Of a stretch of DNA of 64,000 nucleotides, positions 3,476 to 60,758 are shown one piece after another. This DNA is from Patescibacteria group bacterium (GTDB lineage Bacteria; Patescibacteriota; Microgenomatia; 2-02-FULL-39-11): the NCBI GenBank assembly GCA_023379265.1, contig JAMCUI010000009.1, forward strand, positions 36,091-100,090, in the 5' to 3' direction. Both the position numbers and the translations under genes were made by a program. The notes beneath the pieces were generated by a model, which searched no databases, was not told where the DNA came from, and saw only the letters and a program-made list of their open reading frames with translations. Within the stretch, counting starts at the first letter, position 1, and every line of letters begins with the position of its first letter.

Positions 3476-3487
3476 CCTTAAATACAT

Positions 3488-5215: not shown

Positions 5216-5357
5216 TATTACAGATTGTGGGTGCAGGTGCTGGACTGGATGGAATGATCGTGTGTAAAGAAGACATGAAGAAATAGTATTACAGATTGTG
5301 GGTGCAGGTGCTGGACTGGATGGAATGATCGTGTGTAAAGAAGACATGAAGAAATAG
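5162..5357. repeat. 71-bp direct tandem repeat (about 2.75 copies) duplicating the last 54 nt of ilvB including its stop codon plus a 17-nt spacer
   Basis: The unit gcaggtgctggactggatggaatgatcgtgtgtaaagaagacatgaagaaatag + tattacagattgtgggt occurs at 5162-5232, 5233-5303 and (first 54 nt) 5304-5357 with perfect identity. Confidence 0.8.
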
Positions 5358-5398
5358 TCTAGAATTGATAATTATTATTGACAATTAGTTAAAACTAT

Positions 5399-5881: not shown

Positions 5882-5891
5882 GGAGTTTTCT

Positions 5892-6947
5892 ATGGCAAAG
5901 ATGAAATTTGGTGATGTTACCGAAAGTGTAGTGACGAGGCAGGAGTTTCCGCTAGCCCGCGCCCGCCAAGTATTGAAAAATGAAACAGTCGCGGTACTTG
6001 GTTATGGCGTTCAGGGTCCGGCACAAGCGATGAATTTGCGAGATAACGGCATAAATGTGATTATCGGTCAACGGTCACCTTCATCTTCATGGGATAAGGC
6101 TATAAAGGATGGGTGGAAAAAAGGGAAAACCATCTTTTCTATTGAGGAAGCGGCAGAAAAAGGTACAATATTAGCCTATTTGCTTTCTGATGCCGGCCAG
6201 GTGGCACTGTGGCCGACAGTGAAAAAGTATCTGACTGCCGGCAAAGCACTCTATTTTTCCCACGGATTTGGTATCACCTACAGGAAATATACAAAGATTA
6301 TTCCTCCAAAAGATACAGACGTTATCCTTATAGCGCCTAAAGGAGCTGGAAGATCTGTAAGGCAGAATTTCCTTGCCGGAAGCGGAATAAATAGCAGTTT
6401 TGCCGTTTTCCAAGATGCCACAGGCCGGGCAAAAGAGAGAGTTATGGCAATGGGTATCGGTGTGGGATCAGGTTTTCTTTTTGAAACCACGTTTGAGAAA
6501 GAAGTCTATAGCGACTTGACTGGTGAACGTGGAGTACTTATGGGAGCGCTTGAAGGGATAATGGAGGCGCAGTTTAATGAATTCAGAAGACGAGGACACA
6601 CGCCGTCTGAAGCTTTTAACGAAACTGTGGAAGAGTTGACTCAAAGTCTTATCAGAATGGTTGCGGAAAACGGGATGGACTGGATGTATGCCAACTGTTC
6701 AACTACCGCTCAAAGAGGTGCTCTTGATTGGAAAGGAGAGTTTAGAGACGCTGTAGCTCCGGTTTTCAAGAGGCTCTATTCTTCTGTCAAAATCGGAAAA
6801 GAAGCACAACGAGTATTGAAGGCAAATTCAGCAAAAGATTATAGGAAAAAACTTGAAAAAGAATTGTCAGAAATGAGAAATATGGAGATGTGGAGGGCAG
6901 GCGCTACTGTAAGGTCTCTCCGTCCTGAAAATTGGAAGAAAAAATGA
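5892..6947 (+). CDS. ilvC: ketol-acid reductoisomerase (NADP+)
   Basis: About 351 aa from ATG 5892 (RBS aaggag). Rossmann motif VLGYGVQG and class I KARI architecture. The ORF-track start at 5841 is probably too far upstream. Confidence 0.9.
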   Translation: MAKMKFGDVTESVVTRQEFPLARARQVLKNETVAVLGYGVQGPAQAMNLRDNGINVIIGQRSPSSSWDKAIKDGWKKGKTIFSIEEAAEKGTILAYLLSDAGQVALWPTVKKYLTAGKALYFSHGFGITYRKYTKIIPPKDTDVILIAPKGAGRSVRQNFLAGSGINSSFAVFQDATGRAKERVMAMGIGVGSGFLFETTFEKEVYSDLTGERGVLMGALEGIMEAQFNEFRRRGHTPSEAFNETVEELTQSLIRMVAENGMDWMYANCSTTAQRGALDWKGEFRDAVAPVFKRLYSSVKIGKEAQRVLKANSAKDYRKKLEKELSEMRNMEMWRAGATVRSLRPENWKKK

Positions 6948-8809: not shown

Positions 8810-8845
8810 TGGTGAATATAAACTTTATTATAAGAAGGTACCATT

Positions 8846-8953
8846 ATAAAAATTGAAGTTGATACCAAGAAGGCTCCAGAATTAACGTTTTATCAAATAA
8901 ACTTTTAAGGAGGAAAGTGCTATGAAAATTGAAGTTGATACCAAGAAGGCTCC
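8846..8953 (+). repeat. degenerate ~50-bp direct duplication of the ridA RBS plus first 10 codons, placed 75 bp upstream of the real start
   Basis: aaaattgaagttgataccaagaaggctcc occurs at 8850-8877 and 8925-8952. The upstream copy has ATA in place of ATG and taagaagg in place of taaggagg. Confidence 0.6.
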
Positions 8954-9350
8954 GGCGGCAATAGGACCATATTCACAAGCCATCAAGCTGGGTAATCTGG
9001 TTTTTTGTGCTGGAAATATAGGAGTGGATCCAAAAACAAACATATTAAGCGATAAAGGGATAAAAGAACAGACGAAACTTGCTTTAGAGAATATAAAGAA
9101 CATTCTTTCTTCAGCCGGTTCTGGTATGGAAAACGTGTTGAAGACAACTGTTTATCTGAAAAGCATGGATGATTTTGCCTCTATGAATGAAGTTTATGCC
9201 ACTTTTTTTTCCAAGCCGTATCCGGCACGTGCAACTATTGCTGTGGCTAAATTGCCAAAGGATGCTTTAGTTGAGATAGAATGTATAGCTTTTACAAAAG
9301 ATAAGAAAGGAGAATGTTGCGGCGAGGGCGATTGCGGCTGCTGCGACTAA
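8922..9350 (+). CDS. ridA: RidA/YjgF-family reactive enamine/imine deaminase with a C-terminal Cys-rich tail
   Basis: 142 aa with YjgF/TdcF signatures (AIGPYSQA..., ...ARATIAV). Strong RBS aaggagg. Unusual C-terminal extension KKGECCGEGDCGCCD. Confidence 0.8.
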   Translation: MKIEVDTKKAPAAIGPYSQAIKLGNLVFCAGNIGVDPKTNILSDKGIKEQTKLALENIKNILSSAGSGMENVLKTTVYLKSMDDFASMNEVYATFFSKPYPARATIAVAKLPKDALVEIECIAFTKDKKGECCGEGDCGCCD

Positions 9351-9356
9351 AATAAT

Positions 9357-10280
9357 ATGGCTGAGTCAAAAACTTTCCCTTTTGCTTTTTTTGAGGGGAA
9401 AATAATTCCTACTGAGCTTGCACGGGTTAACATCATGACCAATGCTCTTCAGTACGGCAACGGTATTTTTGGCGGTATAAGGGGGTATGTGGCCGAGGGT
9501 AAAAAATCTGTAAATATTTTTAGAGTGAACGACCACTATAAAAGATTTTTAAGTTCCCTGAAAATTTTAAATAAGTCTATTCGATATAGCCAGAGATACC
9601 TTATTGACATCACAGTAGAACTGGCAAAAAAAAACAATCCTAGAACCGATTGTTACTTCCGTCCATTTGCTTATGCCAAGAATTTTGAGATTTCACCTGA
9701 TTTAAGTAAGCTGGAATTTGATTTTGCCATGTATATGATTCCTCTGGGAGAGTATTTACCAGTGAGTAAGGGTTTGAAGTTGGCTATCTCCAATTGGGTC
9801 AGGATAAATGACAATATGATTCCTTCCCGGGCTAAAGTGACGGGAGGGTATATCAATTCTTCCCTAGCTAAAGGAGATGCAGCAAAACTGGGTTGTGATG
9901 ACGCTCTTATGCTTTCTTCCGACGGTCATTTGGCTGAGGGAAGTGGGGCAAATTTCTTTATGATAAGGGACGGGGTACTTATAACAAGCCCAAAATATAA
10001 TGATGTCCTTGAAGGTATAACCAGAAGAACTATTTTAGAGTTGGCGGGTGAATTAAAGATTTCTATAGAGGAAAGAGAAATAGACAGGACTGAAGTTTAT
10101 ATAGCTGATGAAGCTTTCCTCTCAGGGACCGGAGCTCAAGTCGCTTGGATTACAGAGGTTGACGGACGGACAATAGGGGAAGGGAAAATGGGGCCAATTA
10201 CGGGGAAAATTCAAAAACTTTTTTTTGATATTGTCCGTGGTAAGGATAAGAAATATGCCGGTTGGCTGACAAAAATATAA
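9357..10280 (+). CDS. ilvE: branched-chain amino acid aminotransferase (class IV PLP)
   Basis: 307 aa, fold-type IV aminotransferase (EAFLSGTGAQV, catalytic-Lys region). Last biosynthetic gene of the ilv operon. Confidence 0.85.
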   Translation: MAESKTFPFAFFEGKIIPTELARVNIMTNALQYGNGIFGGIRGYVAEGKKSVNIFRVNDHYKRFLSSLKILNKSIRYSQRYLIDITVELAKKNNPRTDCYFRPFAYAKNFEISPDLSKLEFDFAMYMIPLGEYLPVSKGLKLAISNWVRINDNMIPSRAKVTGGYINSSLAKGDAAKLGCDDALMLSSDGHLAEGSGANFFMIRDGVLITSPKYNDVLEGITRRTILELAGELKISIEEREIDRTEVYIADEAFLSGTGAQVAWITEVDGRTIGEGKMGPITGKIQKLFFDIVRGKDKKYAGWLTKI

Positions 10281-10312
10281 AATTGTTTACAAAGAATTGT
10301 TGGAGGGAGAAT

Positions 10313-10606
10313 ATGACAAAATACCAAAAATATTTTCGGGAAATGTTGGATAAGAATGAATATCTTTTTACCGAGTTTAAGCGCATACATGACAGTTATA
10401 CGCTTGATCCCGTCAAGTATGAAAATGAATTCAATAAACTAGGTAAAGAAGTGGTTGATGAGGTTAGGGAATGGGAGAGAAAGTTGTGCAGTCAAAGCGA
10501 ACGGGGGCAATACGGAGTGTTTTCGGCGGGATTGGCTGATAAATTTTGGAAGGAGGTCAGGATTTATTTTCCAAAGATTGATTTTGTAGGAGTCAAAATA
10601 TCGTAA
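10313..10606 (+). CDS. hypothetical protein (about 97 aa)
   Basis: ORF with RBS ggaggga before ATG 10313. No recognisable domain. Convergent with leuB. Confidence 0.35.
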   Translation: MTKYQKYFREMLDKNEYLFTEFKRIHDSYTLDPVKYENEFNKLGKEVVDEVREWERKLCSQSERGQYGVFSAGLADKFWKEVRIYFPKIDFVGVKIS

Positions 10607-10625
10607 ACATCATTCTTCGGAATTA

Positions 10626-11699
10626 TTAGATATATGAGACTATTTTATCACCTGTCTCTTTTGTGCCCAAGATTTTATTTTCAGGCGTATTTTTGTCTTT
10701 TATATCGGGAGTGCGGTAGCCTGATTTGATAAATTTCTCAATAGCTTTTTCTACGATTTTTGCCTCGTCTCCCATCCGGAAACTAATCCTTAACATCATT
10801 ACTATAGAAAGGATGGTAGCCAGGGGGTTTGCAGTATTTTTTCCTGCCGCTTTATTGTAGGCACCATGGATTGGTTCAAATAGGGAATATTTTTTTCCTA
10901 TTGAAGCTGACGGAAGAAGGCCGATAGATCCGCTTATAACCGATGCTTCGTCAGTAAGGATATCCCCAAACATATTTTCTGTCAAAATGACATCAAATTG
11001 TGCCGGATTTTTAATAATTTGCATGGCGGCATTATCGACAAACATATGATTTAGTATTACTGATGGAAAACTTCGGGCAACTTTTTCCACAGTTTCCCGC
11101 CACAATCTTGATGTCTCAAGTACATTGGCTTTATCAACGCTCGTGACTCTTTTTTGGCGTTTTTGTGCAAGATTAAAGGCTACATTAGCAATATTTATGA
11201 CTTCTTCTTTTGAATAAATTGACGTGTCAACGGCAATATTCCCCTTATTTTTTCGCAACCTTGGTTGGCCGAAATAGATACCTCCAGTAAGTTCCCTAAC
11301 AACAACCATATCAACTCCTTCTACTCTTTCTTTTTTGAGCGGTGAGATTTCTGATAAGTTTTTAAATAGTATAATTGGACGGATGTTAGCAAAAAGTTCA
11401 AGAGATTTGCGCAATTTCAAAAGTCCCTGTTCGGGTCTTATTTTTGCTTCAGGGTTGTTGTCATATTTTGGATCTCCAATTGCGCCAAAAAGCACAGCAT
11501 CGGAACTTTTACAGAGTTTCAGAGTTTCAGATGGGAGCGGGCCGCCAGTCTTATCTATGGCAATACTACCTATAAGGCCTTCCTGAAAGATAAACTGGTG
11601 ATTGAATTTCTCTCCGACTTTTTTCAAGACTTTTACCGCTTCCCAGGTTACCTCCGGGCCTACACCGTCTCCAGCTAATAATGCAATTTTCTTTTTCAT
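10626..11699 (-). CDS. leuB: 3-isopropylmalate dehydrogenase
   Basis: 357 aa. N-terminal LLAGDGVGPEV and an isocitrate/IPM dehydrogenase fold. Last gene of the minus-strand leu operon. Confidence 0.9.
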   Translation of the reverse strand: MKKKIALLAGDGVGPEVTWEAVKVLKKVGEKFNHQFIFQEGLIGSIAIDKTGGPLPSETLKLCKSSDAVLFGAIGDPKYDNNPEAKIRPEQGLLKLRKSLELFANIRPIILFKNLSEISPLKKERVEGVDMVVVRELTGGIYFGQPRLRKNKGNIAVDTSIYSKEEVINIANVAFNLAQKRQKRVTSVDKANVLETSRLWRETVEKVARSFPSVILNHMFVDNAAMQIIKNPAQFDVILTENMFGDILTDEASVISGSIGLLPSASIGKKYSLFEPIHGAYNKAAGKNTANPLATILSIVMMLRISFRMGDEAKIVEKAIEKFIKSGYRTPDIKDKNTPENKILGTKETGDKIVSYI

Positions 11700-13597
11700 A
11701 GGTAAATTCTGGGATCAACTATCTTACCCGCGATTGCAGCAGCGGTGACTGTGACCGGTGAGGCCAGAAAAATCTTGGCTTCGCGGGAACCCATTCTGCC
11801 GATATAATTTCTGTTTGACGAAGATATCATTTGCGCTCCGGCTCCGACAACTCCCATGTGTTTACCAAAACATGGTCCACAGTTGGATGATTCGATATTG
11901 GCTCCGGCATCGGCAAAAAGCGTCAGTATGCCGTCTTTTAGCAGTCTGTTATAAACTTTTCTTGAGGCAGGTATTACTACAAAGTTTACCTGAGGATTTA
12001 CCTTCCTGTCTTTTATTACCTTTGCCGCCACCACAAAATCTTCATACCGGCCATTTGTGCAGGCTCCCAAAAAAGCATCTGTTATGTGAAGAGAATTGAC
12101 TCCGGCAAAATCCACATTTTTTGATTTTTGGGATTTACGCATATACTGATCTAGTTTACTTACAGGTGTGACATTTCCCGGTTTATGGGGGAATGCCACC
12201 ATCGGTTCAAGAGAGGATAAATCAATATTGATAATTTTTTCATAATTGCAGTTCCTATCAGGCATATAAGCTTTATAGGGATATTTGGCTCTTTTATCAA
12301 TATATTTTTTTAATATTTTGTCACACTCAAAAATTGCCGTCCTTGCCCCCATTTCAACAGCCATATTTGCTACAGTGGTTCTGGCATCCATGGAGAGAGA
12401 GGAGAGCGCTGGGCCACCAAACTCGACTATTCTTCTTGATGCTCCATCCACTCCCAATTTACCTATTAAATAAAGAATAATATCTTTGGAAAATGTACCC
12501 TTGCCAAGTTTCCCGTGAAGATTTACCCTGATTGTTTTTGGTACTTCAAAATCGTAGAGATATCCTGTGGGTAGAGCGAAACTTGCATCAGTGGTGCCGA
12601 CACCAAAAGCCAAGGTGTTTAGGGCTCCGCTGGTGTCAGTGTGCGAGTCCGTGCCCAGAATAATTTCTCCGGGAACGATTTGGCCATCTTCTATAAGGAC
12701 GACATGTTCTATCCCATCTCCCTCCTTGTAGCATTTGATCCCCTGATTTTTGGCAAACTTCTCCATAAAATCTATTCCTTCAGAAACTGCAACTGATGAG
12801 GAGGGGACAGTATGGTCTGGGATAAGAAATACTCTTTTTTTATCAAATACATGGAATTTCTTTTTGTTTTTTGCATATATGTCGGAGAAATTGGATAAAC
12901 TGTCATTTAGTGCTGGAGGTGCAATGACTTCATTGAAAAAAAGGATATCTATGGATAATTTTTCCAGCTTATCGCCTGCAGAAGCATCATATCCCAGATG
13001 GTCTGAAATTATTTTTTCGGCAATAGTCTTCGGTTTGGACGATTTTATATTTGTTCTGACAAAATCAATCTTCTTCCTGTCGGCTTTTTTCAATAATTCG
13101 GATAGATGATTTCTGATTCTTCCGATTTTTCCTCCAAGAATAAATGTTTTGGCTACCTCTTCATCCATTTTGAATCCAACTTTTTTTCTGCCGTTTATCT
13201 TTATTTCCTTTTTCTCAAGATTAATCGCAAGCCGATCCGATTTGTGAAATTGGATAATATCGTCCATTGTGATTAAGACAAGTCCGTTATTCAGACAGTT
13301 ACGGAAAAATATATCAGGATACGATTTGGCAATGATTGCTTTTACACCGTTTTCCTGCAACGCATAGACTGCCTGTTCTCGGGATGAGCCGCACCCAAAA
13401 TTTTCACCGGCTACAATTATGTTATTGTTCTCTTTATTGTTGAGGTTTACAAAATCTTTGTCATAATTGGCAAAAGCATATTTGGCAAAAAAAGACCGCT
13501 TTGTAGATTCCTGAAGTGTCCAAGCAGGAATTATATCATCAGTATTTATGTCGTCAGGAAAGATGGAAGTAATTTTCCCGGAAATATCGGTAATCAT
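11696..13597 (-). CDS. leuDC: 3-isopropylmalate dehydratase, single-chain fusion with small-subunit (LeuD) domain N-terminal and large-subunit (LeuC) domain C-terminal
   Basis: N-terminal ~180 aa carry LeuD motifs (IIVAGENFGCGSSREQAVYAL, IFFRNC). The remainder carries LeuC motifs (GTDSHTDTSGALN, SSNCGPCFGK, SSSNRNYIGRMG). Start set at the internal ATG 13597, 1 nt after the leuA stop; the ORF-track start 13621 would overlap leuA by 23 nt. Confidence 0.8.
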   Translation of the reverse strand: MITDISGKITSIFPDDINTDDIIPAWTLQESTKRSFFAKYAFANYDKDFVNLNNKENNNIIVAGENFGCGSSREQAVYALQENGVKAIIAKSYPDIFFRNCLNNGLVLITMDDIIQFHKSDRLAINLEKKEIKINGRKKVGFKMDEEVAKTFILGGKIGRIRNHLSELLKKADRKKIDFVRTNIKSSKPKTIAEKIISDHLGYDASAGDKLEKLSIDILFFNEVIAPPALNDSLSNFSDIYAKNKKKFHVFDKKRVFLIPDHTVPSSSVAVSEGIDFMEKFAKNQGIKCYKEGDGIEHVVLIEDGQIVPGEIILGTDSHTDTSGALNTLAFGVGTTDASFALPTGYLYDFEVPKTIRVNLHGKLGKGTFSKDIILYLIGKLGVDGASRRIVEFGGPALSSLSMDARTTVANMAVEMGARTAIFECDKILKKYIDKRAKYPYKAYMPDRNCNYEKIINIDLSSLEPMVAFPHKPGNVTPVSKLDQYMRKSQKSKNVDFAGVNSLHITDAFLGACTNGRYEDFVVAAKVIKDRKVNPQVNFVVIPASRKVYNRLLKDGILTLFADAGANIESSNCGPCFGKHMGVVGAGAQMISSSNRNYIGRMGSREAKIFLASPVTVTAAAIAGKIVDPRIYL

Positions 13598-13598
13598 A

Positions 13599-15110
13599 TC
13601 AGTGAATCTTATTAACAGCATCTATATAAGCCATTGCTGCAGCGACTATGGTGTCGGTGTGAATTCCTGAACCGAAAGATTCCTTTTTGCCGTTTTGCAC
13701 TCCCACGTATACTTTAGCCATGGCGTTTGATCCTATTGTGGCGGCCTGGATAAGAAATTGCGTCAGTTTGTGATTTTGACCGAGACAAGTGTCTATGGCA
13801 TTAAAACTGGCATCTATTGGGCCGTCACCGGTACCTGTAGCTTCCTTATTTTTTCCATCGACTGACAACCTTACGGTTGAAGTGGGAATATTTTTATTCC
13901 CTGAAATTGTTTGGATGAGCACGAGTTTTATTTTTTTGTGGTTTGTTTCATCTTTTTGGCCCATAAGATAATATAGATCCTCGTCATAAATTTCTTTTTT
14001 GATGTCAGCAAGTTTCAAAAATTCCTTATAGACAGAGTTCAATTTATCCTGTGTCAGATCAAAACCTATTTTTTCCAGCTTGTGACGAAGTGCTGCACGG
14101 CCTGATCGGGCTGTGAGAATAATTTTTGAAGAAGTCAATCCTACAGCCCTTGGGTCAATTATTTCGTAATTTTCCCTTCTTTTCAGTACTCCGTCTTGGT
14201 GTATTCCTGATGAATGGGAAAAAGCGTTGGCTCCGATTATGGCCTTATTCGGTTGGACAGGAATGCCCATAATCTGCGAAACCATCTGGCTGGTTTTGTA
14301 AATTTCGCCGGTCTTAATTCTTGTTGTATAAGACAGATAATCGCGTCGTGTGTAAAGCGCCATGATTACTTCCTCAAGTGAGGTATTTCCTGCTCTTTCG
14401 CCAATTCCGTTCATTGTTACCTCTACCTGTCTTGCTCCGTTAAAAACACCAAACAAAGTGTTGGCTGTAGCTACACCCAGATCATTATGACAATGTACAG
14501 AAATGATGGCTTTATCAATATTGGGTACATTTTTGGTGATATATTTTATTTTTTGGCCAAATTCTTCGGGAAAACAATAACCAGTGGTATCGGGAATATT
14601 GACGACTGTTGCTCCTGCAGTTATTACCTTCATAATCATTTCCGAAAGAAATTTATTATCTGCGCGTCCGGCATCTTCAGCATAAAATTCCACGTCAGAA
14701 ACAAATTTTTTGGCATACCGGACAGCCTCAATCGCCCTTTCTAGTATATCTTTTCGGTTTGATTTGAATTTGTACTTTATATGGACATCTGAGACACCGA
14801 TTCCGGTATGTATCCGGGGACTTTGTGCGTATTTAAGCGCTTTGGCGGCGCATTCTATATCTTCTTTTATGGCACGAGTCAGGCCGCAGACGGTACAGTT
14901 TCTGACTATTTTTGAGACAGCCACGATTGATTCAAAATCCCCAGGTGAAGAGATAGGAAATCCTGCTTCAATTATGTCCACTCCCAACTTTTCTAATTGT
15001 CTGGCCAATTCAACTTTTTGGGAAGTGTTCAATTTAGCCCCAGGTGACTGTTCGCCGTCACGCAGTGTTGTGTCAAAGACAAAGATTTTATTTTTCATGA
15101 AGTTTATCAA
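13599..15110 (-). CDS. leuA: 2-isopropylmalate synthase (or citramalate synthase) with C-terminal LeuA-dimer regulatory domain
   Basis: HMGL-like TIM barrel ([20 protein letters not shown]) plus a C-terminal allosteric domain ([14 protein letters not shown]). Start is TTG 15110 or ATG 15098. Confidence 0.85.
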
Positions 15111-25812: not shown

Positions 25813-27327
25813 ATGGCCACTATAAACCGTAAAATCTCAGCTTGCATGGCCACGCAGCATCCGGATAATGCTGCGAGGCCTTACTGGAATCCAAGGCCTT
25901 TTATATCAACAAGCGCTGAGATAAAAGAAAGTTACCTGAATTTTTCTGATCTTTCTATAGATGAGTATAATTGGGATTGGGAAGGGAAATTTGTGGATGA
26001 GGCGGTCATAGATAAGCTTCTGCACCGTTATTTCAATTACTTCCAAAAACACCCGATAGGGAAGGACAAACTTCTTACATTCAGGATTCCAAATCCCAGA
26101 GTGGAAAAGCAATTTAGGTTGGCTAGGGCTTTTATGGTAATTATCACGAGCAGCCAGCTGGCTCGGAGTCTGGGTTTTTCTTCACCACCAATTTTTGAAA
26201 CAATTCTTCCTTTGACGGAAACCGCAGAAGAAATCGCAGAGATTCAGGAAGCTTTCAAAGACTTGATTAGTGTAAATCACAGGCTTTTGAACATGAAGGA
26301 CTCGTTGCAATATTTGGAAATAATCCCTCTTTTTGAACAAGTGGGTAAGATTGCCGGGTCTGCCGGAATTCTGAAAAAATATATAGCATTGCACAAAAAG
26401 ATGTTTGGGTACAAACCCAAATATATAAGGCCTTATTGTGCAAGGAGCGACCCGGCGCTAAACTCTGGGCTTATACCGACGATATTATCTCTAAAAGTAG
26501 CATTATCCTCCTACTTGAAGCTGGAAGAGGATACTGATGTGAGGCTTTTTCCTATGTTGGGAACAGGTTCGTTGCCGTTTAGAGGAGGACTTAGTCCTGA
26601 CAGATTGGATATTGCATTATCTGAATATGCTGGAGTACGCACGTTGACTATACAAAGCGCTTTCAGATACGACTATCCCAAACACGATGTGAAACTTGCC
26701 ATTGAGAGGCTGAATAACGAATTGCATCATAGAAAAGCAAAGCGACTGGATAAGACAAGTGTAGACGTCATACAAAGAACCATTCCTCTTTTTGAGAAGC
26801 CCTACAGGAATTCGATAGAACAGGCAGCAGGAATGATAAATGTTTTAAGCAGGCAAGTAGCCAAAAGAAGAGAAAGGATGCTTCATATAGGACTCTTCGG
26901 ATACTCAAGAGGCGTTGGTCATGTTAGTTTGCCGAGAGCTATTCCGTTTACAGCGTCCTTATATTCATTGGGTGTGCCTCCTGAATTGATAGGGACAGGA
27001 AGAGGTATAAAAGAGGCAAAGAAAAAAGGCTTATGGGAAAAATCTTCACAGTATTATCTTCATATTAAAGAAGACTTGCTTCATGCAGGTAATTTCCTGA
27101 ATAAGCAGAATTTATCCCGTCTTGCAAAGCACAGTTCCTTCTGGTATGACGTAGAAGAAGATGTTAAAGAGATCGAAAAAGAATTGGGAATAGTACTTGG
27201 TCCTGGTAATTCCACACAGCTAGAACATTACAATCTTGTGGAAAAAATTTATAAGAAGATTATGGAAGGTAATGATGTTTCAAAACTGATTACTTACGGC
27301 GGTTTATTGAGGCAAAGTTTGGGTTGA
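25813..27327 (+). CDS. archaeal-type phosphoenolpyruvate carboxylase (PepcA family)
   Basis: 504 aa, begins MATINRKISACMATQHPDNA. This matches the characteristic N-terminal MxTQHPDN signature and size (~500-540 aa) of atPEPC, which is unrelated in length to bacterial Ppc (~900 aa). Confidence 0.65.
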   Translation: MATINRKISACMATQHPDNAARPYWNPRPFISTSAEIKESYLNFSDLSIDEYNWDWEGKFVDEAVIDKLLHRYFNYFQKHPIGKDKLLTFRIPNPRVEKQFRLARAFMVIITSSQLARSLGFSSPPIFETILPLTETAEEIAEIQEAFKDLISVNHRLLNMKDSLQYLEIIPLFEQVGKIAGSAGILKKYIALHKKMFGYKPKYIRPYCARSDPALNSGLIPTILSLKVALSSYLKLEEDTDVRLFPMLGTGSLPFRGGLSPDRLDIALSEYAGVRTLTIQSAFRYDYPKHDVKLAIERLNNELHHRKAKRLDKTSVDVIQRTIPLFEKPYRNSIEQAAGMINVLSRQVAKRRERMLHIGLFGYSRGVGHVSLPRAIPFTASLYSLGVPPELIGTGRGIKEAKKKGLWEKSSQYYLHIKEDLLHAGNFLNKQNLSRLAKHSSFWYDVEEDVKEIEKELGIVLGPGNSTQLEHYNLVEKIYKKIMEGNDVSKLITYGGLLRQSLG

Positions 27328-27421
27328 GATAAATTATGGCTTGGGTGTAGGAGTAGTTTCGTATATAATTGGTAGAGATTATCAAAGACCTGCTTTTTAT
27401 AAAATAAAAGGAGGAATAAAT

Positions 27422-28618
27422 ATGAAAAAAGTCTCTGTCTCAAAAAGGGCAGCAAATACGCCCGCTTCTGCCATAAGAAAACTGGTGCCTTTGGCTGACG
27501 CAGCAAAAAAAAGAGGCATTAAAGTTTACCATGTGAATATAGGCCAACCTGACCTACCAACCCCTGATCCAATACTTTCGGCAATAAGGCATTTTAAGGA
27601 ATCTACTATAGAATATGCTCCATCAACTGGTGTATATGAGACTATGGAGGCATGGAAAAAGTTTTATAGTGATAAGGGAATAAAATTTGATGCCTCTGAC
27701 ATACTGGTGACAAGTGGAGGTTCGGAAGGTCTGATTTTCGCCTTTCTTACAGTGGCAGATCCGGGGGATGAATTAATAGTCTTTGAGCCTTTTTATACGA
27801 GCTACGCCATAATTGCTGCAATGGGCAATATAAAGTTGAAAGCAGTTAGGACAAAGGTGGAAGACGGTTTTCATCTTCCGCCTAAAGCAGCAATTGAGAA
27901 AGCAATTACATCAAGAACTAAAGGGATTGTAGTGTGCAATCCGAATAATCCTACCGGTACTCTCTATACGGATGCGGAAGTGAAAATGATTGCAGAGTTG
28001 GCTCTTAAACACAATCTTTTTATCATTTCTGACGAAACCTATCAGGAGTTAGTCTTTGATGGGAAAAAAGTATTGCCGTTTGCCTCATTTCCCAAACTTG
28101 CAAACCAGTTGGTTGTGACGGATAGCGTTTCTAAACGTTTTAATAGCTGTGGAGTGAGGATAGGTTGTGTCGTGAGTAAGAATAAGGAAGTAATGCAGTC
28201 AATTTTAAGGTTTGCCCAGGGAAGATTGTCTGTAGCCACAGTCGAGCAGATGGCTCTTATCCCTATGCTGTTAAATCATAAGCCTTATGTCGCCAAGATA
28301 AGGAAACTTTATGAGAGTAGAAGGGATACGGTGGTGCGTGAGCTGAAAAGAATTCCAGGCGTGACAGCCGTCGCGCCCGAAGGAGCTTTTTATATAATTC
28401 CCAAGCTTCCTATAAAAGATAGTGATGACTTTGCATCATACCTTCTTAGTGATTTTTCTGATCGGAAAGAGACGGTTATGGTGGCGCCAGCAACAGGTTT
28501 CTATGCTACACCTGGGTTGGGTAGCAACGAGATTAGAATTGCCTATGTGTTAGAGGAAAAGAAGCTTGAAAGGGCAATAGAGTTATTGGGTTTGGCAATC
28601 AAAAAATACAACCGTTAA
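27422..28618 (+). CDS. aspC: aspartate aminotransferase (class I/II PLP aminotransferase)
   Basis: Start ATG 27422 with RBS aaaggagga. Aminotransferase class I motifs include SVSKRFNSCGVRIG (PLP-Lys region). The ORF-track start 27341 is upstream extension. Confidence 0.8.
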   Translation: MKKVSVSKRAANTPASAIRKLVPLADAAKKRGIKVYHVNIGQPDLPTPDPILSAIRHFKESTIEYAPSTGVYETMEAWKKFYSDKGIKFDASDILVTSGGSEGLIFAFLTVADPGDELIVFEPFYTSYAIIAAMGNIKLKAVRTKVEDGFHLPPKAAIEKAITSRTKGIVVCNPNNPTGTLYTDAEVKMIAELALKHNLFIISDETYQELVFDGKKVLPFASFPKLANQLVVTDSVSKRFNSCGVRIGCVVSKNKEVMQSILRFAQGRLSVATVEQMALIPMLLNHKPYVAKIRKLYESRRDTVVRELKRIPGVTAVAPEGAFYIIPKLPIKDSDDFASYLLSDFSDRKETVMVAPATGFYATPGLGSNEIRIAYVLEEKKLERAIELLGLAIKKYNR

Positions 28619-56174: not shown

Positions 56175-56204
56175 TTGCATTTTTACTTTCCAAAAAGATA
56201 TACT
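56175..56204 (+). promoter_or_regulatory. sigma70-like promoter (TTGCAT-18-TATACT) upstream of RuBisCO gene
   Basis: Hexamers at 56175-56180 and 56199-56204. Strong RBS aggaggt 8 nt before ATG 56245. Confidence 0.4.
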
Positions 56205-56244
56205 GGATAAGTATCAGTTATTTTTTCAATAGGAGGTAAATTTT

Positions 56245-57633
56245 ATGGCTGTCCAATTAAATTATATTGCGGGGGAAGGCTGGCAACCTGAGAATCCCGA
56301 TGAGAATTATGTGTTGGTTCAGTTCAAGATGGAGCTTGCTGATAACGTTGACCCTTCAAATTTCAGGAATGCCGCAGCCTCTGTGGCGGCAGAATCATCC
56401 ACAGGTACATGGACAAAAGTAGAGGATCGTCCAGACTCAGGTATAAAGGTGGCGGATGATTACAAAGCTATAGTATACGACCTGGATGAAATCAACCACA
56501 TGTTTAAGGTGGCCTATAAAGTGGATTTGTTTGAATATGACAATATGTCAGGTTATTTGGCGGGGCCTGCCGGAAACATTGGTGGGATGAAAATGGTCAA
56601 GGGGCTTCGAATTTTTGACATGAGATTTCCAAAGAAAATGGTGGATGCATTTCCTGGACCCAGATATGGTATTGATGGAGTCAGGGATATGCTTGCCCAA
56701 GATGAAAACCAAAGGAGGATGCCGATATTGGGAACTGTGCCAAAACCAAAAGTGGGAAGGACAGCTCAGGAACAGGCAGATTTAGCAAGAAGACTTTGGA
56801 CTGCGGGAGACGGGACTTATGATTTCATTAAAGATGATGAAAATCTGACCAGTCTGCCTTTCAATAAGTTTGACGATAGAGCAAAACTTGTTCTTGCAGT
56901 ACAAAGGGAGCTTGAGGAAAAAGGCGGCAAGAAAAAACTTTATCTGTGTAACCTGACGCATTCCAATCTTGATACCATGATTTATAGAGCAAACTTGATA
57001 AAGGAAAATGGCGGCAGGTGCATGATGATAGATGTGGTGACGACCGGTATGGCAGCAGTCCATACTATGAGGCTTAAGAATCCAGAACTTATTATTCATG
57101 CGCATCGGGCTATGCATGCCTTTATGACTCGTGAAAGCGGTAGCGGAATAACTGGTGTGGGTAACCTGCAAGGTTTTAGTATTTCCATGATTGTACTCGC
57201 CAAAATATACAGACTTTTGGGAGTTGATAGCCTTCACAGCGGTTCTCCCAAAGCCAAAATGGAAGATTATGGGGAGAGTGAGGAGATTATGCGTATTCTT
57301 ACAAAAGATATGACAGAGCCGAATACAAAATTCCATACGTTGGGACAGAACTGGTTTGGGAAAAAGACGGTTTGGCCTACCGCTTCTGGCGGTTTACATC
57401 CGGGAGTAATGGATATGGTCATGAGAAAGATGGGTAAAGACTGTTACATTCAGATGGGAGGTGGAGTTTTAGGACATCCCAAAGGAGCAGAGAGGGGAGT
57501 TGAGGCTGCCATTGAGGCGAGAAAGGCAATCACAGAAGGCCAATCTGTAAAGGAATACGTAGCCGCACATCCTGAAAGTGCACTGGCTGAAGCAGTGCAA
57601 TTGTGGGGTACCGAACCTAAAATAGTATATTGA
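56245..57633 (+). CDS. rbcL: ribulose-1,5-bisphosphate carboxylase/oxygenase large subunit, archaeal form III-like
   Basis: 462 aa with all diagnostic RuBisCO motifs. These are AAESSTGTWT, AGNIGGMKMVKGLR, GTVPKPKVG, YDFIKDDEN (carbamylated Lys + Mg ligands), HAHRAMHA, LHSGSPKAKMED, PTASGGLHPG and MGGGVLGHP. Long collinear similarity by eye to Thermococcus-type form III. Confidence 0.85.
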   Translation: MAVQLNYIAGEGWQPENPDENYVLVQFKMELADNVDPSNFRNAAASVAAESSTGTWTKVEDRPDSGIKVADDYKAIVYDLDEINHMFKVAYKVDLFEYDNMSGYLAGPAGNIGGMKMVKGLRIFDMRFPKKMVDAFPGPRYGIDGVRDMLAQDENQRRMPILGTVPKPKVGRTAQEQADLARRLWTAGDGTYDFIKDDENLTSLPFNKFDDRAKLVLAVQRELEEKGGKKKLYLCNLTHSNLDTMIYRANLIKENGGRCMMIDVVTTGMAAVHTMRLKNPELIIHAHRAMHAFMTRESGSGITGVGNLQGFSISMIVLAKIYRLLGVDSLHSGSPKAKMEDYGESEEIMRILTKDMTEPNTKFHTLGQNWFGKKTVWPTASGGLHPGVMDMVMRKMGKDCYIQMGGGVLGHPKGAERGVEAAIEARKAITEGQSVKEYVAAHPESALAEAVQLWGTEPKIVY

Positions 57634-57698
57634 GTCGAAATATTGCTGATAACATTTTTTCGGAAACGTTCTGAAAAAACGCTTCAAAAAAGAAGCAT

Positions 57699-58355
57699 TT
57701 AGTTTATCAACTGGAGAAGTTCATTGGGATAGTCGATTAGTTTTTTGGCTCCACCTTCTTGGATCTGTGTTATTGATTGGTATCCCCAAGAAGCTCCTAC
57801 TGGATACATTCCTGATGATTGTGCTGTTTTCATATCAATATCCGAGTCACCTAAGTATATCCAATTTCCTGGGTTAATTTTCATATTTCGGCAAATATTT
57901 AACACTTCTGTCGGATCGGGTTTTTCAGGAGTAACACCGGGGATGATACCTGAGACTTCGCTAAAATAATCATTTCCAAGAAGGCCTTTAACTAAAGATT
58001 GTGTGAAACTGTTTTCCTTGTTAGAAAATACTGCCATTTTCATATCAATTTTTTTTAACTCATTCAATAAGGGAAGAACACCCGTAAAGATTCTTGTCTC
58101 AGGTAAACATCTTTTACCGTACTCTTTTTGTGCTTCTTTATAGACAGCATCAATAACTTCACTCATTTGTTTTCCAGTTGGTAGAGATTGCATTACTAGA
58201 TTTCTGAAGCCCTTACCGATAATTTTTTTATAGAAAGCGATATCGTGTACCGGAAGGTTATGTAATGATAATACACTGTTCATGGTGGCAGCCAATCCGC
58301 CTGCTGTATCAAGGAGGGTTCCGTCAAGATCAAAAAGTACTGCTTGGAATTTCAT
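57699..58355 (-). CDS. HAD-IA phosphatase resembling phosphoglycolate phosphatase (Gph/CbbZ-like)
   Basis: Motif I LFDLDGTLLDTAGGLAA, motif III KPDP, motif IV GDSDIDMKTAQSSG. Co-directional, 4-nt gap to the PRK gene. Confidence 0.6.
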   Translation of the reverse strand: MKFQAVLFDLDGTLLDTAGGLAATMNSVLSLHNLPVHDIAFYKKIIGKGFRNLVMQSLPTGKQMSEVIDAVYKEAQKEYGKRCLPETRIFTGVLPLLNELKKIDMKMAVFSNKENSFTQSLVKGLLGNDYFSEVSGIIPGVTPEKPDPTEVLNICRNMKINPGNWIYLGDSDIDMKTAQSSGMYPVGASWGYQSITQIQEGGAKKLIDYPNELLQLIN

Positions 58356-58358
58356 CGT

Positions 58359-59429
58359 TCACTGCTTCCCGAGTTCGTTATATTTCCAGTTCACCTGTTC
58401 CAAAAATCTCCATGCGATAATAAGTTGTGCAAATTTAGTGGCTGAGACATTTTCATTACTCTCTTTAGGATCAAGTAAGTCACCTTTCATGGCTTCCTTA
58501 ATTGGTATGCCTGTGCAGCTGACAATAAAATTTTCCAGACTGGCAATTGTTTGTTCAGGAAGTAAGCCATCAATGGTAACATCCATAACTTTTCTTCCCC
58601 AATATAGACTGGGAACAGCTGCCAGAAGAAAAGGAGGTTGGTTATTATCTAGTATTGACCCCATATTAAGAGGAAGCATAAGACTGGGCAAAGGTTTTTG
58701 TGAGGGTTGGATAATTAATTCCACTTTGTAGGACATCTCCGGCATGGCATAGACCAGTTCATATCGGGCATAGTTTGCCATTTGGGTAAGATTTACTTTA
58801 ATGACGATATTGGCGCTTGTTTTTTGGAAATCTATCCATCTTTTATAAGCTGCTTCACGTTTTAGCATTTCCTCTATCAGTTTTTCTGCAGCATGGCCTC
58901 TTTTTTCCATATCCCGTCTGTATTTCCATTTCCATTTTACTTCCCTAGAGGGATCAACATAGATACTCAGATCCAGAAGAGGTAGAAATTCCGGATAAAG
59001 AGCATGAAGTCCTTCAATTATAATAATTGGAGCAGGGGCAAACGGTCTTGGATTATCAAAATCACCTGTGGCATGATTATATACAGGGATCTCTATTGCC
59101 TTTCCCTTTTTCAGATCTGTCAGGTGCTGATGTAATAGATCAAGTTTGTTTATAGATGGATCTAAGGGCAAATGGCCAGTTTTTAGGCGTTCGGCCCGGT
59201 TTTCCTTGTGATAACCGTCCATTTCAATCGTTTTGACCACGCTTTCACCCAATAGCCTTCTGATTCCATCGCTAAAGACAGTTTTGCCGCTTCCGCTGTC
59301 TCCGGAAATGCCGATAATGAACGGTTCTTTAATCCTGTCCAACATAGAACGCAGAAATAAACAAGTAGGGTGCGATTCAAAAGAGCCGAATTGGAAATGT
59401 TTATTCTGATAATTTAATGATTGGCTCAT
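58359..59429 (-). CDS. prk: phosphoribulokinase (PRK/uridine-kinase superfamily, plant/cyanobacterial/archaeal-type PRK)
   Basis: P-loop GISGDSGSGKT. Collinear PRK blocks: DGYH, LDPSINKLDLL, KKGKAIEIPVYNHATG, IIIEGLHALY, DLSIYVDPSREVKWKWKYRRDMEKRGH. Confidence 0.8.
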   Translation of the reverse strand: MSQSLNYQNKHFQFGSFESHPTCLFLRSMLDRIKEPFIIGISGDSGSGKTVFSDGIRRLLGESVVKTIEMDGYHKENRAERLKTGHLPLDPSINKLDLLHQHLTDLKKGKAIEIPVYNHATGDFDNPRPFAPAPIIIIEGLHALYPEFLPLLDLSIYVDPSREVKWKWKYRRDMEKRGHAAEKLIEEMLKREAAYKRWIDFQKTSANIVIKVNLTQMANYARYELVYAMPEMSYKVELIIQPSQKPLPSLMLPLNMGSILDNNQPPFLLAAVPSLYWGRKVMDVTIDGLLPEQTIASLENFIVSCTGIPIKEAMKGDLLDPKESNENVSATKFAQLIIAWRFLEQVNWKYNELGKQ

Positions 59430-59540
59430 AACGTTGGAAACAAATATATAAATTAAGCATATGGTGAATAATTTTAGATGTCAATATAACTATTTTAAAA
59501 GATTGACTAGGACAAAAAGCTATGGAACAATTAGATTGTT

Positions 59541-60758
59541 ATGTTAGGTAGTACACTCAGGGATAAGAAATTCGGGGAGTTATTTGCAGATTTGGCAAAA
59601 GGAGCATGCATGTCTTTACGAGACAGGAGAGTTTTAGAGAAAAGGTATGGTTTTAATGGAGAAAAACCGTTGACTTTTTTTCAAATATCCAAGCAAACGG
59701 GTCTCCCTTTACAAAAAATAAAAAAAATTTCCAGATCTGCCATAATTCTCATAAGATCAAAAATGACAGCGGATATGAAAAATATAGATGAAGATAGTGC
59801 ATCACAGAGAATTTCTTCATACCTCAAAAACAGATTTGGTGATACAGGTAAAAAGGATAAAAGACTGGCCGGACGTATATCAAGATACGTAAAAAGATAT
59901 TTTTCCTATTTGCCGGCAAGATATGGAATAGAAAATCTGATTCTACTTCTGGCTTATCCTTCATTTTCCCGACATAAAATACTTATTAAAAAAGTCAGGA
60001 GATTGATGAATAAATCCGGAAAGACTTCACCTCTTTACCTAAACAATAAGCAATCTTTGGTTTTTAGGAAATTGCTTTCCGAGGTTGAGTGGTTTGGACA
60101 GTCGGAGGAAACGAATGACTTATCTTTACCAGATATAAATGAAATCAGTCTGGAAAGTAAAAGAAGGATAAGAAATGTACCTTTCGATTACCAGAAAAAT
60201 TCAGGATCTTTTTACAGCCACAAACTTAAAAGAGAAGTACAATTTGAATCAGGGCGCGAAAGAGAGATGTTTATTTATATGGAGAAACATGATGATGTGG
60301 TTTGGTATAAAGAACAACCCTTAAAATTATCATATCGGTTACAAGGTAAGGATAGGTATGTATATCCTGATTGTCTGTTTGAGCTTTCCAGCGGAAAACG
60401 GGTCGTGGTAGATATACGTCCAGTTTTTAAGATGGCGCTTTCGGAAAATGTATTCAAATGGAGCCTGATGCAAAAGTATTGCAGGAGGAAAGGTTATGGG
60501 TTGCTAATAACAGATGGGAAAAAATCAATCAGCCATTTTCTACGTCATGAGGTTAACAAGGAATTTGCTCAGGCGGTATTGGATAAGCTCCGGAAGATAA
60601 GGCCTAGATCATTGTGGTGGCAGGAATATAAGTCGTTATTGAGGAAACACAAAGCAATCATTGAGGATGACGTGGGACTTATACTGCAGTGCAGGTTGGT
60701 TTGGACGCTGAATCCTTTCAGTCTAAGAGGGAGAGGATTGTCAAGTTATAAATTATAA
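59541..60758 (+). CDS. hypothetical protein with sigma-70 region-4-like HTH N-terminus and a possible PD-(D/E)xK nuclease-like C-terminal domain
   Basis: LRDRRVLEKRYGFNGEKPLTFFQISKQTGLPLQKIKKI resembles sigma70_r4. C-terminal YPDCLFEL...KRVVVDIRP resembles D-x(n)-E-x-K restriction-endonuclease-like cores. Confidence 0.35.
   Translation: MLGSTLRDKKFGELFADLAKGACMSLRDRRVLEKRYGFNGEKPLTFFQISKQTGLPLQKIKKISRSAIILIRSKMTADMKNIDEDSASQRISSYLKNRFGDTGKKDKRLAGRISRYVKRYFSYLPARYGIENLILLLAYPSFSRHKILIKKVRRLMNKSGKTSPLYLNNKQSLVFRKLLSEVEWFGQSEETNDLSLPDINEISLESKRRIRNVPFDYQKNSGSFYSHKLKREVQFESGREREMFIYMEKHDDVVWYKEQPLKLSYRLQGKDRYVYPDCLFELSSGKRVVVDIRPVFKMALSENVFKWSLMQKYCRRKGYGLLITDGKKSISHFLRHEVNKEFAQAVLDKLRKIRPRSLWWQEYKSLLRKHKAIIEDDVGLILQCRLVWTLNPFSLRGRGLSSYKL

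Follow-up and report, generated by a model that had tools for sequence, protein, structure and literature searches.

Recurrent adjacency of a form III-like RuBisCO gene and a predicted non-classical phosphoribulokinase gene in Gottesmanbacteria-type Patescibacteria

In the 64-kb window, the whole stretch of DNA analysed here, a small-genome, groundwater-type, Gottesmanbacteria-like member of the Patescibacteria carries a gene for a form III-like RuBisCO large subunit (RbcL) beside a gene for a predicted non-classical phosphoribulokinase (PRK). This adjacency recurs among its relatives, and the two genes appear to be co-inherited. A carboxylating shunt leading from pentose phosphate to 3-phosphoglycerate (3-PGA) through PRK and RuBisCO is the best explanation of the locus and, in our judgement, a probable one. 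The pairing itself does not have the novelty first ascribed to it, as PRK together with form III-like/III-c RuBisCO in Gottesmanbacteria, and a partial CBB cycle for it, were published by Jaffe, Castelle, Dupont and Banfield in Mol Biol Evol in 2019 (PMC6389311). The locus is thus a further example, not a discovery, and NCBI already lists the window's own proteins under the annotations RuBisCO-like, HAD and PRK. What is new here is the physical linkage of the RbcL and PRK genes, found in 8/17 species representatives of one RbcL subclade versus 0/13 elsewhere, and their apparent co-inheritance. Both bear on a question raised by Jaffe et al. 2019, namely whether the RuBisCO of CPR/Patescibacteria serves nucleotide salvage only or is fed by PRK as well.

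Locus organization and the RuBisCO large subunit

An ORF check placed the three ORFs (462, 218 and 356 aa) exactly where the original prediction had them, in two transcription units, a monocistronic RbcL gene converging on a PRK-HAD operon. RbcL (56245..57633, plus strand; 462 aa) is preceded by the Shine-Dalgarno sequence AGGAGG (56231..56236, plus strand), 8 nt 5' of its ATG, and by a possible promoter, TTGCAT-18 nt-TATACT (56175..56204, plus strand), which was picked out by eye on weak evidence and went unlisted by the consensus scan because its -35 hexamer matches at only 3/6 positions. A gap of 65 bp separates RbcL from the gene for a HAD-IA phosphatase (57699..58355, minus strand; 218 aa). 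Between the convergent 3' ends, a terminator-like scan returned the hairpin GCTTC-AAAAAA-GAAGC (57681..57696, plus strand), which is only a candidate terminator, since such sites in the region are not above shuffles. The HAD gene is the second of its operon, with its ATG 3 nt after the stop codon of the PRK gene (58359..59429, minus strand; 356 aa), and the scan's best promoter-like site, TTGACA-17 nt-TATGCT (59456..59484, minus strand; 10/12, by consensus only), lies upstream of PRK. Divergent from PRK, an ORF at 59541..60758 (plus strand) encodes a TnsA-N-like endonuclease with a sigma-70 region 4-like HTH, matching Pfam PF08722 at 1.9e-07 and NCBIfam TnsA_like at 1e-13, the latter below cutoff; it stands outside the pathway, yet is kept beside the locus in the closest relative, L012 (87% identical).

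Judged by sequence, RbcL is a bona fide form III-related RuBisCO and not a form IV RuBisCO-like protein (RLP), in line with the original prediction. Both of its Pfam domains, RuBisCO_large_N (PF02788; 2.9e-27, 95.7 bits) and RuBisCO_large (PF00016; 2.6e-61, 207.9 bits), score above gathering and place it in the RuBisCO large-subunit superfamily, and the Pfam E-values of all three ORFs lie far beyond chance. Its best NCBIfam model is the form III model TIGR03326 (400.8 bits), whereas the RLP-type models OiaX and MtnW reach only 118-160 bits. In an alignment to spinach RbcL, whose sequence was confirmed as 100% identical to 1IR1/8RUC, 21/21 catalytic or substrate-binding positions are carboxylase-compatible (E50, T55, W56, N111, V165, K167, K169, K196 (=K201), D198, E199, H287, R288, H291, H331, K338, M339, S381, G382, G383, G405 and G406), and the equivalents of K201, K175 and H294, the residues singled out for checking, are all present, as are those of the metal ligands D203/E204, of K334 and of the Gly residues that bind phosphate. 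The sole departures from spinach are T173 to V (V165, as in T. kodakarensis) and L335 to M (M339, clade-wide).

The TIGR03326 score falls below the equivalog cutoff (400.8 versus 497.45), which sets RbcL apart from canonical archaeal form III and is consistent with a separate deep clade. An 11-aa insertion, GITGVGNLQGF, follows HAHRAMHAFMTRESGS; it is common to close homologues and is not found in the aligned spinach or T. kodakarensis RbcL. RbcL thereby carries the mark of form III-like RuBisCO (Wrighton 2016; Jaffe 2019), an insertion of about 11 aa after HxHRAMH (PMC6389311). Sequence identity is 75-81% to Gottesmanbacteria proteins (78-79% to the nr entries named "RuBisCO long chain, Form III-like"), 41% to the form III-b enzyme of T. 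kodakarensis and 36.5% to spinach RbcL. An NJ tree, built without labelled III-c, II/III or IV references and with T. kodakarensis as the outgroup, places RbcL with homologues from CPR/DPANN; all our trees were computed by NJ from simple distances rather than by ML. Among solved structures, RbcL matches 8DHT and 1GEH best (~1e-80). Like the form III-b enzyme of the T. kodakarensis AMP pathway (1GEH/3A12), RbcL would work with large subunits only, as far as its genes suggest, and its catalytic residues agree with those of that enzyme, down to the V at spinach position 173; it differs from that enzyme in the 41% identity, the insertion and the sub-cutoff score, and from that system in having PRK, not deoA or e2b2, nearby. 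Soluble expression has been achieved for form III-like and other deep-branching Patescibacteria RuBisCOs, and at least one unclassified Patescibacteria rubisco has a measured carboxylation rate.

The kinase and the phosphatase

The 356-aa ORF matches PF00485 at 2.1e-39 and scores 291.1 bits against the NCBIfam model NF005655 "phosphoribulokinase" (cutoff 236), versus 102 bits against the uridine kinase model udk (cutoff 180) and 36 against the pantothenate kinase model panK. Among PDB entries, the M. hungatei PRK 5B3F (159.8 bits) and the Synechococcus PRK 6HZK (142.5 bits) rank above a uridine kinase (81 bits), and the 5B3F match spans the full length of the protein, including a C-terminal half with no counterpart in uridine kinases. 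The P-loop, DxYH, EGLH and KxxRxxxxR motifs are all intact (GDSGSGKT at 43, DGYH at 71, EGLH at 139 and KYRRDMEKR at 169); DxYH and KxxRxxxxR are presumably the ribulose-5-phosphate (Ru5P)-site motifs, as in the studied R. sphaeroides and plant enzymes. The profile, structure and motif matches point to a PRK-family protein and not to a uridine or pantothenate kinase, which bears out the original call.

The protein contains only two cysteines, Cys23 and Cys305. The Cys16/Cys55 pair of classical class II enzymes is not present, as the P-loop reads GDSGSGKT and a Glu aligns with the Cys of ICLDDYH, and a Cys-less P-loop is found in 115/123 aligned sequences (the window's PRK and its relatives). 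Lacking this plant/cyanobacterial pair, the enzyme should not be thioredoxin/CP12-regulated. It therefore differs from redox-regulated classical class II PRKs, and it is not of proteobacterial class I either (NF011997, 34.9 bits versus a cutoff of 362). It is closest to Gottesmanbacteria proteins and to a non-classical group from cyanobacteria (51-61% identity), with 37.6% identity to Synechococcus 7942 PRK and 33% to M. hungatei PRK. The Cys-less subfamily is thus one shared with cyanobacteria, not an archaeal one; in cyanobacteria its genes have neighbors of other kinds, lying within a hox hydrogenase cluster or next to enolase. The earlier suggestion of laterally acquired, archaeal-derived carbon metabolism consequently finds no backing in the kinship of PRK, nor in GC and GC3, which are unremarkable at the locus, the composition giving no sign of recent transfer. 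An archaeal-type PEPC, which had been drawn into that suggestion, lies 29 kb from the locus in an unrelated context.

A pairing of form III-a RuBisCO with archaeal PRK (structure 5B3F) reportedly operates in the reductive hexulose-phosphate pathway of methanogens, as described by Kono et al. in 2017. The present locus resembles that system in combining a form III-type RuBisCO with a predicted non-redox-regulated PRK bearing a GDSGSGK[ST] P-loop, with 5B3F as the best solved match. In contrast, its PRK is only 33% identical to that of M. hungatei, its RbcL is form III-like rather than III-a, its host is a bacterium, and hps/phi are not found in the window.

The third protein matches HAD_2 at 5.9e-29 and carries the HAD core motifs DLDGT (9), SNK (111) and GDSDID (169). 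Its best family matches are phosphoglycolate-phosphatase models, and among solved structures its top match is 2HI0, named "putative phosphoglycolate phosphatase" (84.7 bits); nonetheless, it falls below all phosphoglycolate-phosphatase equivalog cutoffs, TIGR01449 and NF009695 (106.8 versus 180; 122.7 versus 225). Its nearest homologues, from unrelated phyla, are 40-47% identical, no close orthologue was found among them, and the gene is not in L012, whose RbcL is 97% identical. Of the Gph/CbbZ-like assignment, the Gph-like HAD-IA part holds and the phosphoglycolate-phosphatase part does not, and the protein would best be described as a generic COG0546-type, Gph-like HAD. As it is missing from L012 and without close orthologue, the module cannot depend on it; its coming and going between near-identical strains likewise indicates that the phosphatase is not essential. 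The joint presence of RuBisCO, PRK and a Gph-family HAD recalls bacterial cbb operons with CbbZ, yet here there is no small subunit and no other cbb gene, and unlike CbbZ the HAD is sub-cutoff and not conserved.

Linkage of RbcL and PRK across relatives

Within the Gottesmanbacteria-type subclade of 462-aa RbcLs, eight of 17 species representatives have PRK next to RbcL, and about half have RbcL without an adjacent PRK; among 13 loci elsewhere (Parcubacteria, Dojkabacteria and archaeal form III-like loci), none has the two side by side. At least 10 further metagenome contigs, some of only 2.8-6 kb, show the same length in the RbcL and PRK match lists and therefore probably carry both genes. 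Over nine adjacent pairs, the pairwise identities of RbcL and PRK are strongly correlated (Pearson 0.95, Mantel p ~0.0004), as expected for a pair inherited together. Recurrent adjacency in eight species representatives and correlated divergence together argue that PRK and RuBisCO are functionally linked, as had been proposed, and make real coupling a better account than a chance association of genes in binned genomes.

The RbcL type, the 11-aa insertion, the Cys-less PRK clade and the proposed function all agree with the Gottesmanbacteria system of Jaffe et al. Beyond that account, the physical PRK-RbcL linkage is here recurrent and apparently co-inherited, and an extra HAD accompanies PRK in its operon; the main text of Jaffe et al. 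contains neither "adjacent" nor "phosphoglycolate", and quantifies gene proximity for deoA/e2b2 only (PMC6389311).

The order PRK then HAD is also found in L015 and L017, though with the operon in divergent, not convergent, orientation to RbcL. The HADs of these two loci and of the window form one NJ clade (bootstrap 65/100) despite ~40% identity, which leaves room for an ancestral three-gene module. That RbcL, PRK and a Gph-like HAD were a self-contained module ancestral to the Gottesmanbacteria-type lineage, in which the HAD, lost repeatedly, cleared 2-phosphoglycolate or another by-product, nevertheless seems unlikely to us; if true, the module would provide, without recourse to AMP salvage and in micro-oxic surroundings, a carboxylating pentose shunt or even net CO2 fixation. 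In L005, RbcL is followed by an adenylate-kinase-like P-loop kinase, not a PRK, and an unrelated HAD.

A probable carboxylating pentose shunt and its alternatives

The most likely and most economical reading, already that of the original prediction, runs from Ru5P through ribulose-1,5-bisphosphate (RuBP) to 3-PGA. Ru5P would be supplied by ribose/nucleoside catabolism or by the oxidative pentose-phosphate branch; PRK would convert it with ATP to RuBP, the small-subunit-less RuBisCO would carboxylate RuBP to two molecules of 3-PGA, and 3-PGA would feed lower glycolysis. We infer these activities and the direction of flux from the genes. Such a two-enzyme shunt, matching the "partial CBB" that Jaffe et al. 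2019 proposed, need not imply autotrophy. The HAD, whose presence differs even among close relatives, may serve as an accessory phosphatase and perhaps clear a by-product such as 2-phosphoglycolate. In the window, no rpiA, rpe, tkt, zwf, gnd or lower-glycolysis gene was found, so the locus does not itself document the source of Ru5P or the fate of 3-PGA.

A rival reading, which overlaps with the shunt and differs in the dominant supply of RuBP, assigns the RuBisCO mainly to AMP salvage (DeoA to E2b2 to RuBisCO), with the partner genes elsewhere in the genome and PRK as a minor source; we regard it as possible, if somewhat doubtful. Jaffe et al. did offer augmentation of the AMP pathway by PRK as an alternative to a partial CBB cycle, and reported the full set of three AMP-pathway genes in ~91% of the Gottesmanbacteria genomes that have form III-c RuBisCO (PMC6389311). 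Against it, no Glycos_transf_3 or IF-2B family ORF, and hence no deoA/e2b2 candidate, occurs in ~76 kb around the locus (the 64-kb window, ~8 kb to its left and ~3.6 kb to its right). The description of the locus as lacking AMP-salvage partners is accordingly correct for this stretch, but it carries little weight as an argument, because the form III-like RbcL loci of relatives are generally not beside deoA/e2b2 either and their absence from the window is uninformative. Also against this reading, the conserved, co-inherited neighbor of RbcL in the subclade is PRK and no AMP-pathway gene. A complete autotrophic CBB cycle, or a variant with transaldolase or bifunctional FBPase, in which the HAD would detoxify the oxygenase product as CbbZ does, strikes us as improbable. 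RuBisCO, PRK and a Gph-like HAD do make up the classic cbb-specific trio, phosphoglycolate phosphatases are the top family models of the HAD, the genome has more biosynthetic capacity than is usual among Patescibacteria, including a complete gene cluster for branched-chain amino acids, and some Gottesmanbacteria bins lack SBPase alone among CBB enzymes (PMC6389311). Yet no further CBB gene (tkt, rpe, rpiA, fba/fbp/SBPase, gap or pgk) is found in the window or its flanks, no energy-conserving system for autotrophy is found in the window, the HAD is dispensable in the nearest relative, and Jaffe et al. themselves held a working CBB-like pathway in CPR to be uncertain (PMC6389311).

It is highly improbable, finally, that the kinase acts on another substrate, a nucleoside or other sugar phosphate, in nucleotide or sugar salvage rather than RuBP synthesis, the HAD then possibly completing a kinase/phosphatase pair on a salvage intermediate. 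The subfamily is only 33-38% identical to proven PRKs, with no assayed member according to Jaffe et al. 2019 (PMC6389311) and no later enzymatic report found in the literature; its cyanobacterial members have unrelated neighbors, and the pair in L005 suggests that a kinase and a HAD beside RuBisCO need not be PRK-specific. These points are countered by the score above the curated PRK cutoff and far above the uridine-kinase models, by the full-length 5B3F match and by the Ru5P-site motifs. With its three genes and two putative promoters, the locus forms a compact unit suited to cloning and assay.

Organization of the RuBisCO-PRK-HAD locus

The RuBisCO-PRK-HAD locus is a real feature of the window and was correctly observed. 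It consists of a 462-aa plus-strand ORF at 56245-57633 encoding a RuBisCO large subunit-like protein (RbcL), a 218-aa minus-strand ORF at 57699-58355 encoding a Gph-like HAD-IA phosphatase (HAD), and a 356-aa minus-strand ORF at 58359-59429 encoding a phosphoribulokinase (PRK), each located exactly where the original prediction had placed it. The PRK stop codon precedes the HAD ATG by only 3 nt, indicating that PRK and HAD form an operon, and the RbcL and HAD genes are convergent, separated by 65 bp with a short hairpin. In a consensus scan, the strongest promoter-like site of the region, TTGACA-17-TATGCT (10/12 matches), lies upstream of PRK. RbcL is provided with an AGGAGG ribosome-binding site and a weaker candidate motif, TTGCAT-18-TATACT, which starts at 56175, the start coordinate chosen in the original prediction. 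The GC content of RbcL (0.444) is close to that of ilvD (0.438), and the GC and GC3 values of all three genes fall inside the range of the window; thus, composition gives no sign of recent acquisition, and the argument for a recent lateral transfer was abandoned.

RbcL matches both RuBisCO domains of Pfam. Its top NCBIfam model is TIGR03326 (form III) at 400.8 bits, under the cutoff of 497, and the form II models and those of the form IV RuBisCO-like protein (RLP) type, OiaX and MtnW, score far below it. A MAFFT alignment against spinach RbcL (100% identical to 1IR1/8RUC) shows compatible residues at 21 of 21 catalytic or substrate positions, the sole departures from spinach being T173 to V, which is also found in the Thermococcus kodakarensis form III enzyme, and L335 to M, which is clade-wide. 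Overall identity is 41% to the T. kodakarensis enzyme and 36.5% to spinach RbcL. Directly past HAHRAMHAFMTRESGS, RbcL carries an insertion of 11 residues; an insertion of this kind, of about 11 aa, is a feature of the "form III-like" CPR/DPANN clade (Jaffe et al. 2019, PMC6389311). Its nearest homologues, 75-81% identical, come from Candidatus Gottesmanbacteria or are nr entries named "RuBisCO long chain, Form III-like". Collectively, the domain and model scores, active-site residues, insertion and nearest homologues argue that RbcL is a genuine RuBisCO, form III-related and "III-like", rather than an RLP, and both the RuBisCO call and its active-site alignment check hold. A match labelled Kerfeldbacteria (P0065) is 68% identical to RbcL, and a form III-like enzyme from Kerfeldbacteria, along with other Patescibacteria rubiscos, has been found soluble on expression and biochemically characterised.

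Relatives of the kinase and the phosphatase

The PRK protein matches PF00485 and retains the motifs GDSGSGKT, DGYH, EGLH and KYRRDMEKR. It scores 291 bits with NF005655, an NCBIfam PRK subfamily model with a cutoff of 236, versus 102 for uridine kinase and 36 for pantothenate kinase, which supports its assignment to the PRK family. Among solved structures, its top relative is the archaeal Methanospirillum hungatei PRK (5B3F; 159.8 bits, full length), followed by cyanobacterial PRKs at about 143 bits and a uridine kinase at 81 bits. Classical class II PRKs possess a Cys16/Cys55 redox pair; the window PRK lacks it, since Cys23 and Cys305 are its only cysteines. Together with its best 120 matches, the protein belongs to one subfamily, in which 115 of 123 aligned sequences have a Cys-less P-loop and whose members, under Gottesmanbacteria and cyanobacterial labels alike, are 51-61% identical to it. 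Identity drops to 37.6% with the Synechococcus 7942 PRK and to 33% with that of M. hungatei. An archaeal origin of PRK was therefore ruled out, and the archaeal derivation proposed in the original prediction was an overstatement, the nearest proteins being those of Gottesmanbacteria and non-classical cyanobacterial type. As judged from its sequences, this subfamily matches the Gottesmanbacteria PRK clade that Jaffe et al. (2019, PMC6389311) found nested among unassayed non-classical cyanobacterial sequences; we found no assay of the subfamily in the later literature. Its cyanobacterial genes occupy unrelated neighbourhoods. An Aerosakkonema member (L047, 6001-7077) is embedded in a gene cluster for the bidirectional NiFe hydrogenase (hox), near a CBS-CP12 gene, and a Gloeobacter member (L046, 6001-7038) lies directly upstream of enolase.

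The HAD protein has the core motifs DLDGT, SNK and GDSDID. Its top family matches are phosphoglycolate-phosphatase models, which it hits far under cutoff (122.7 vs 225 and 106.8 vs 180 bits), and its top solved relative is a merely "putative" phosphoglycolate phosphatase from structural genomics. With identical copies of the same organism set aside, the nearest homologues belong to unrelated phyla and share 40-47% identity with it. In the closest relative locus, L012, RbcL and PRK are 97% and 94% identical to those of the window and the flanking genes are the same, yet HAD is absent: 738 bp of the window (57634-58371) correspond to 175 bp (L012 11390-11564), within which 43 bp (11407-11449) duplicate the PRK 3' end, possibly as a rearrangement scar. 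A PRK-then-HAD operon is also present in two other species, at loci L015 and L017, where it is divergent from RbcL. Identity between these two HADs is 67% and drops to 39-43% against that of the window; all three form one neighbour-joining clade among 122 sequences (bootstrap 65/100). Linkage of PRK to a Gph-like HAD thus recurs but is dispensable. Naming the protein a 2-phosphoglycolate phosphatase went too far, given the sub-cutoff scores and its absence from L012; 2-phosphoglycolate as its substrate would be a guess.

Linkage of RbcL and PRK across relatives

Among 30 species-representative RbcL loci, compared by neighbour-joining rather than maximum-likelihood trees as throughout, PRK adjoins RbcL in eight. 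The two genes are convergent in L012, L021, L022, L024, L033 and L039, sharing a few bases at their 3' ends in four of the six, and divergent in L015 and L017. All eight loci belong to a 462-aa Gottesmanbacteria-type RbcL subclade with 17 representatives; in the other 13 loci (Parcubacteria, Dojkabacteria, Saccharibacteria-labelled or archaeal), PRK never adjoins RbcL. Within the subclade, adjacency is found in several early branches, and in a derived, well-supported group RbcL has relocated beside dnaA-rnpA-yidC-nadE without PRK. Pairwise identities of RbcL and PRK are strongly correlated over nine adjacent pairs (Pearson 0.95, Mantel p ~0.0004), as expected from joint inheritance. At least 10 further metagenome contigs, some of only 2.8-6 kb, probably carry both genes, because contigs of identical length occur in the RbcL and PRK match lists.

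In L015 (8107-9062), a "Woesebacteria"-labelled MAG, the PRK beside RbcL is split: tblastn matches it in two segments, and the longest ORF has 148 aa. Either the gene is a pseudogene with a frameshift or the assembly is in error. On a 1.1-Mb Gottesmanbacteria contig (L005, identical to L016; 10001-12892), two genes lie downstream of RbcL in the same orientation, one for a 183-aa adenylate-kinase-like P-loop kinase and one for a 257-aa HAD with no relationship to that of the window (BLASTP E = 1.3). This locus was ruled out as the same module and is, by its sequences, a different kinase and HAD pair next to the same RuBisCO type. Many TPA MAGs with Gottesmanbacteria/Parcubacteria-type RbcL and PRK (L012, L017, L022-L026, L033, L036, L039, L041) are titled "uncultured Gammaproteobacteria bacterium", probably wrongly.

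Jaffe et al. (2019, PMC6389311) reported 31 PRK-carrying genomes of Gottesmanbacteria and Peregrinibacteria, with a form III-like RuBisCO in some of the former. A RuBisCO and PRK system of this kind is therefore already published, and NCBI already annotates all three genes (identical proteins MCL4338635.1 for RbcL and MCL4338636.1 for HAD, and one for PRK, on a 355,528-bp contig of a "Patescibacteria group bacterium"), so that the novelty first claimed was too strong. Three points seem not to have been stated before, namely that the physical linkage of RbcL to PRK is conserved, that the two genes are apparently inherited together and that a Gph-like HAD is a variable member of the PRK operon: the words "adjacent" and "phosphoglycolate" are absent from the main text of that paper, and we found no report of an RbcL-PRK-HAD gene cluster in the later literature.

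Proposed pathway and genomic surroundings

The best-supported reading, which we consider probable, is a two-step carboxylating shunt with both activities predicted: PRK would convert Ru5P to RuBP at the expense of ATP, and the L-only RuBisCO would turn RuBP and CO2 into two 3-PGA for lower glycolysis. The same route was proposed in 2019 as a "partial CBB" or oxidative-PPP-fed pathway (Jaffe et al., PMC6389311); the CBB-like idea of the original prediction is sound, but not new. A full CBB cycle with HAD acting as CbbZ is improbable: phosphoglycolate-phosphatase models do lead the HAD matches, but below their cutoffs, and L012 dispenses with the gene. That the kinase is PRK-like but acts on a different substrate is more doubtful still; its subfamily is unassayed, and its PRK model score is well ahead of those of the other kinases.

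AMP salvage through genes located elsewhere, to which PRK would add only a minor supply of RuBP, is unlikely but deserves more weight than either. The window and its flanks (~8 kb on the left, ~3.6 kb on the right) have no gene for a Glycos_transf_3 (AMP phosphorylase) or IF-2B (E2b2) protein, and to this extent the claimed lack of AMP-salvage partners stands. However, four related form III-like loci whose neighbours have Pfam labels are also without such genes nearby, and most Gottesmanbacteria genomes with form III-c encode deoA/e2b2 elsewhere (Jaffe et al. 2019, PMC6389311); the claim thus cannot be carried beyond the window, and independence from AMP salvage was overstated.

The window otherwise holds an ordinary chromosomal gene set, including SecDF, RecJ, aminoacyl-tRNA synthetases, Era, a two-component system, ABC exporters and a TreT-like glycosyltransferase, with no tRNA and no Rfam match. 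Descriptions of Patescibacteria usually state that the group lacks amino-acid synthesis. In the window, 1757-15110 is a complete cluster for making branched-chain amino acids (ilvD, ilvB, ilvN, ilvC, RidA, ilvE, leuB, leuA), with two unusual fusions, one of a PALP domain with a LeuA allosteric domain (6932-8809) and one of LeuD with LeuC, the small subunit ahead of the large (11696-13621). The stretch 25813-28618 encodes an archaeal-type PEP carboxylase (PF14010, 438 bits) and, directly after it, a class I/II aminotransferase, plausibly a PEP to oxaloacetate to aspartate pair; the carboxylase, also present on the L012 contig, is unlinked to the RuBisCO locus, 29 kb away. Divergent from PRK, a plus-strand gene at 59541-60758 encodes a 405-aa protein that combines an N-terminal TnsA-like endonuclease domain with an HTH of the sigma-70 region-4 type and is kept at 87% in L012; TnsB/TnsC partners are absent, hence no intact transposon is obvious here. 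In each of three independent Logan assemblies of the window organism (L001-L003), the sequence breaks off, at its left end, ~230 bp past the sulfatase gene that extends over the right end of the window. The NCBI contig runs on from there to genes for a serine recombinase and an HTH protein (L004 1965-3311), which suggests that the region beyond is variable or mobile.
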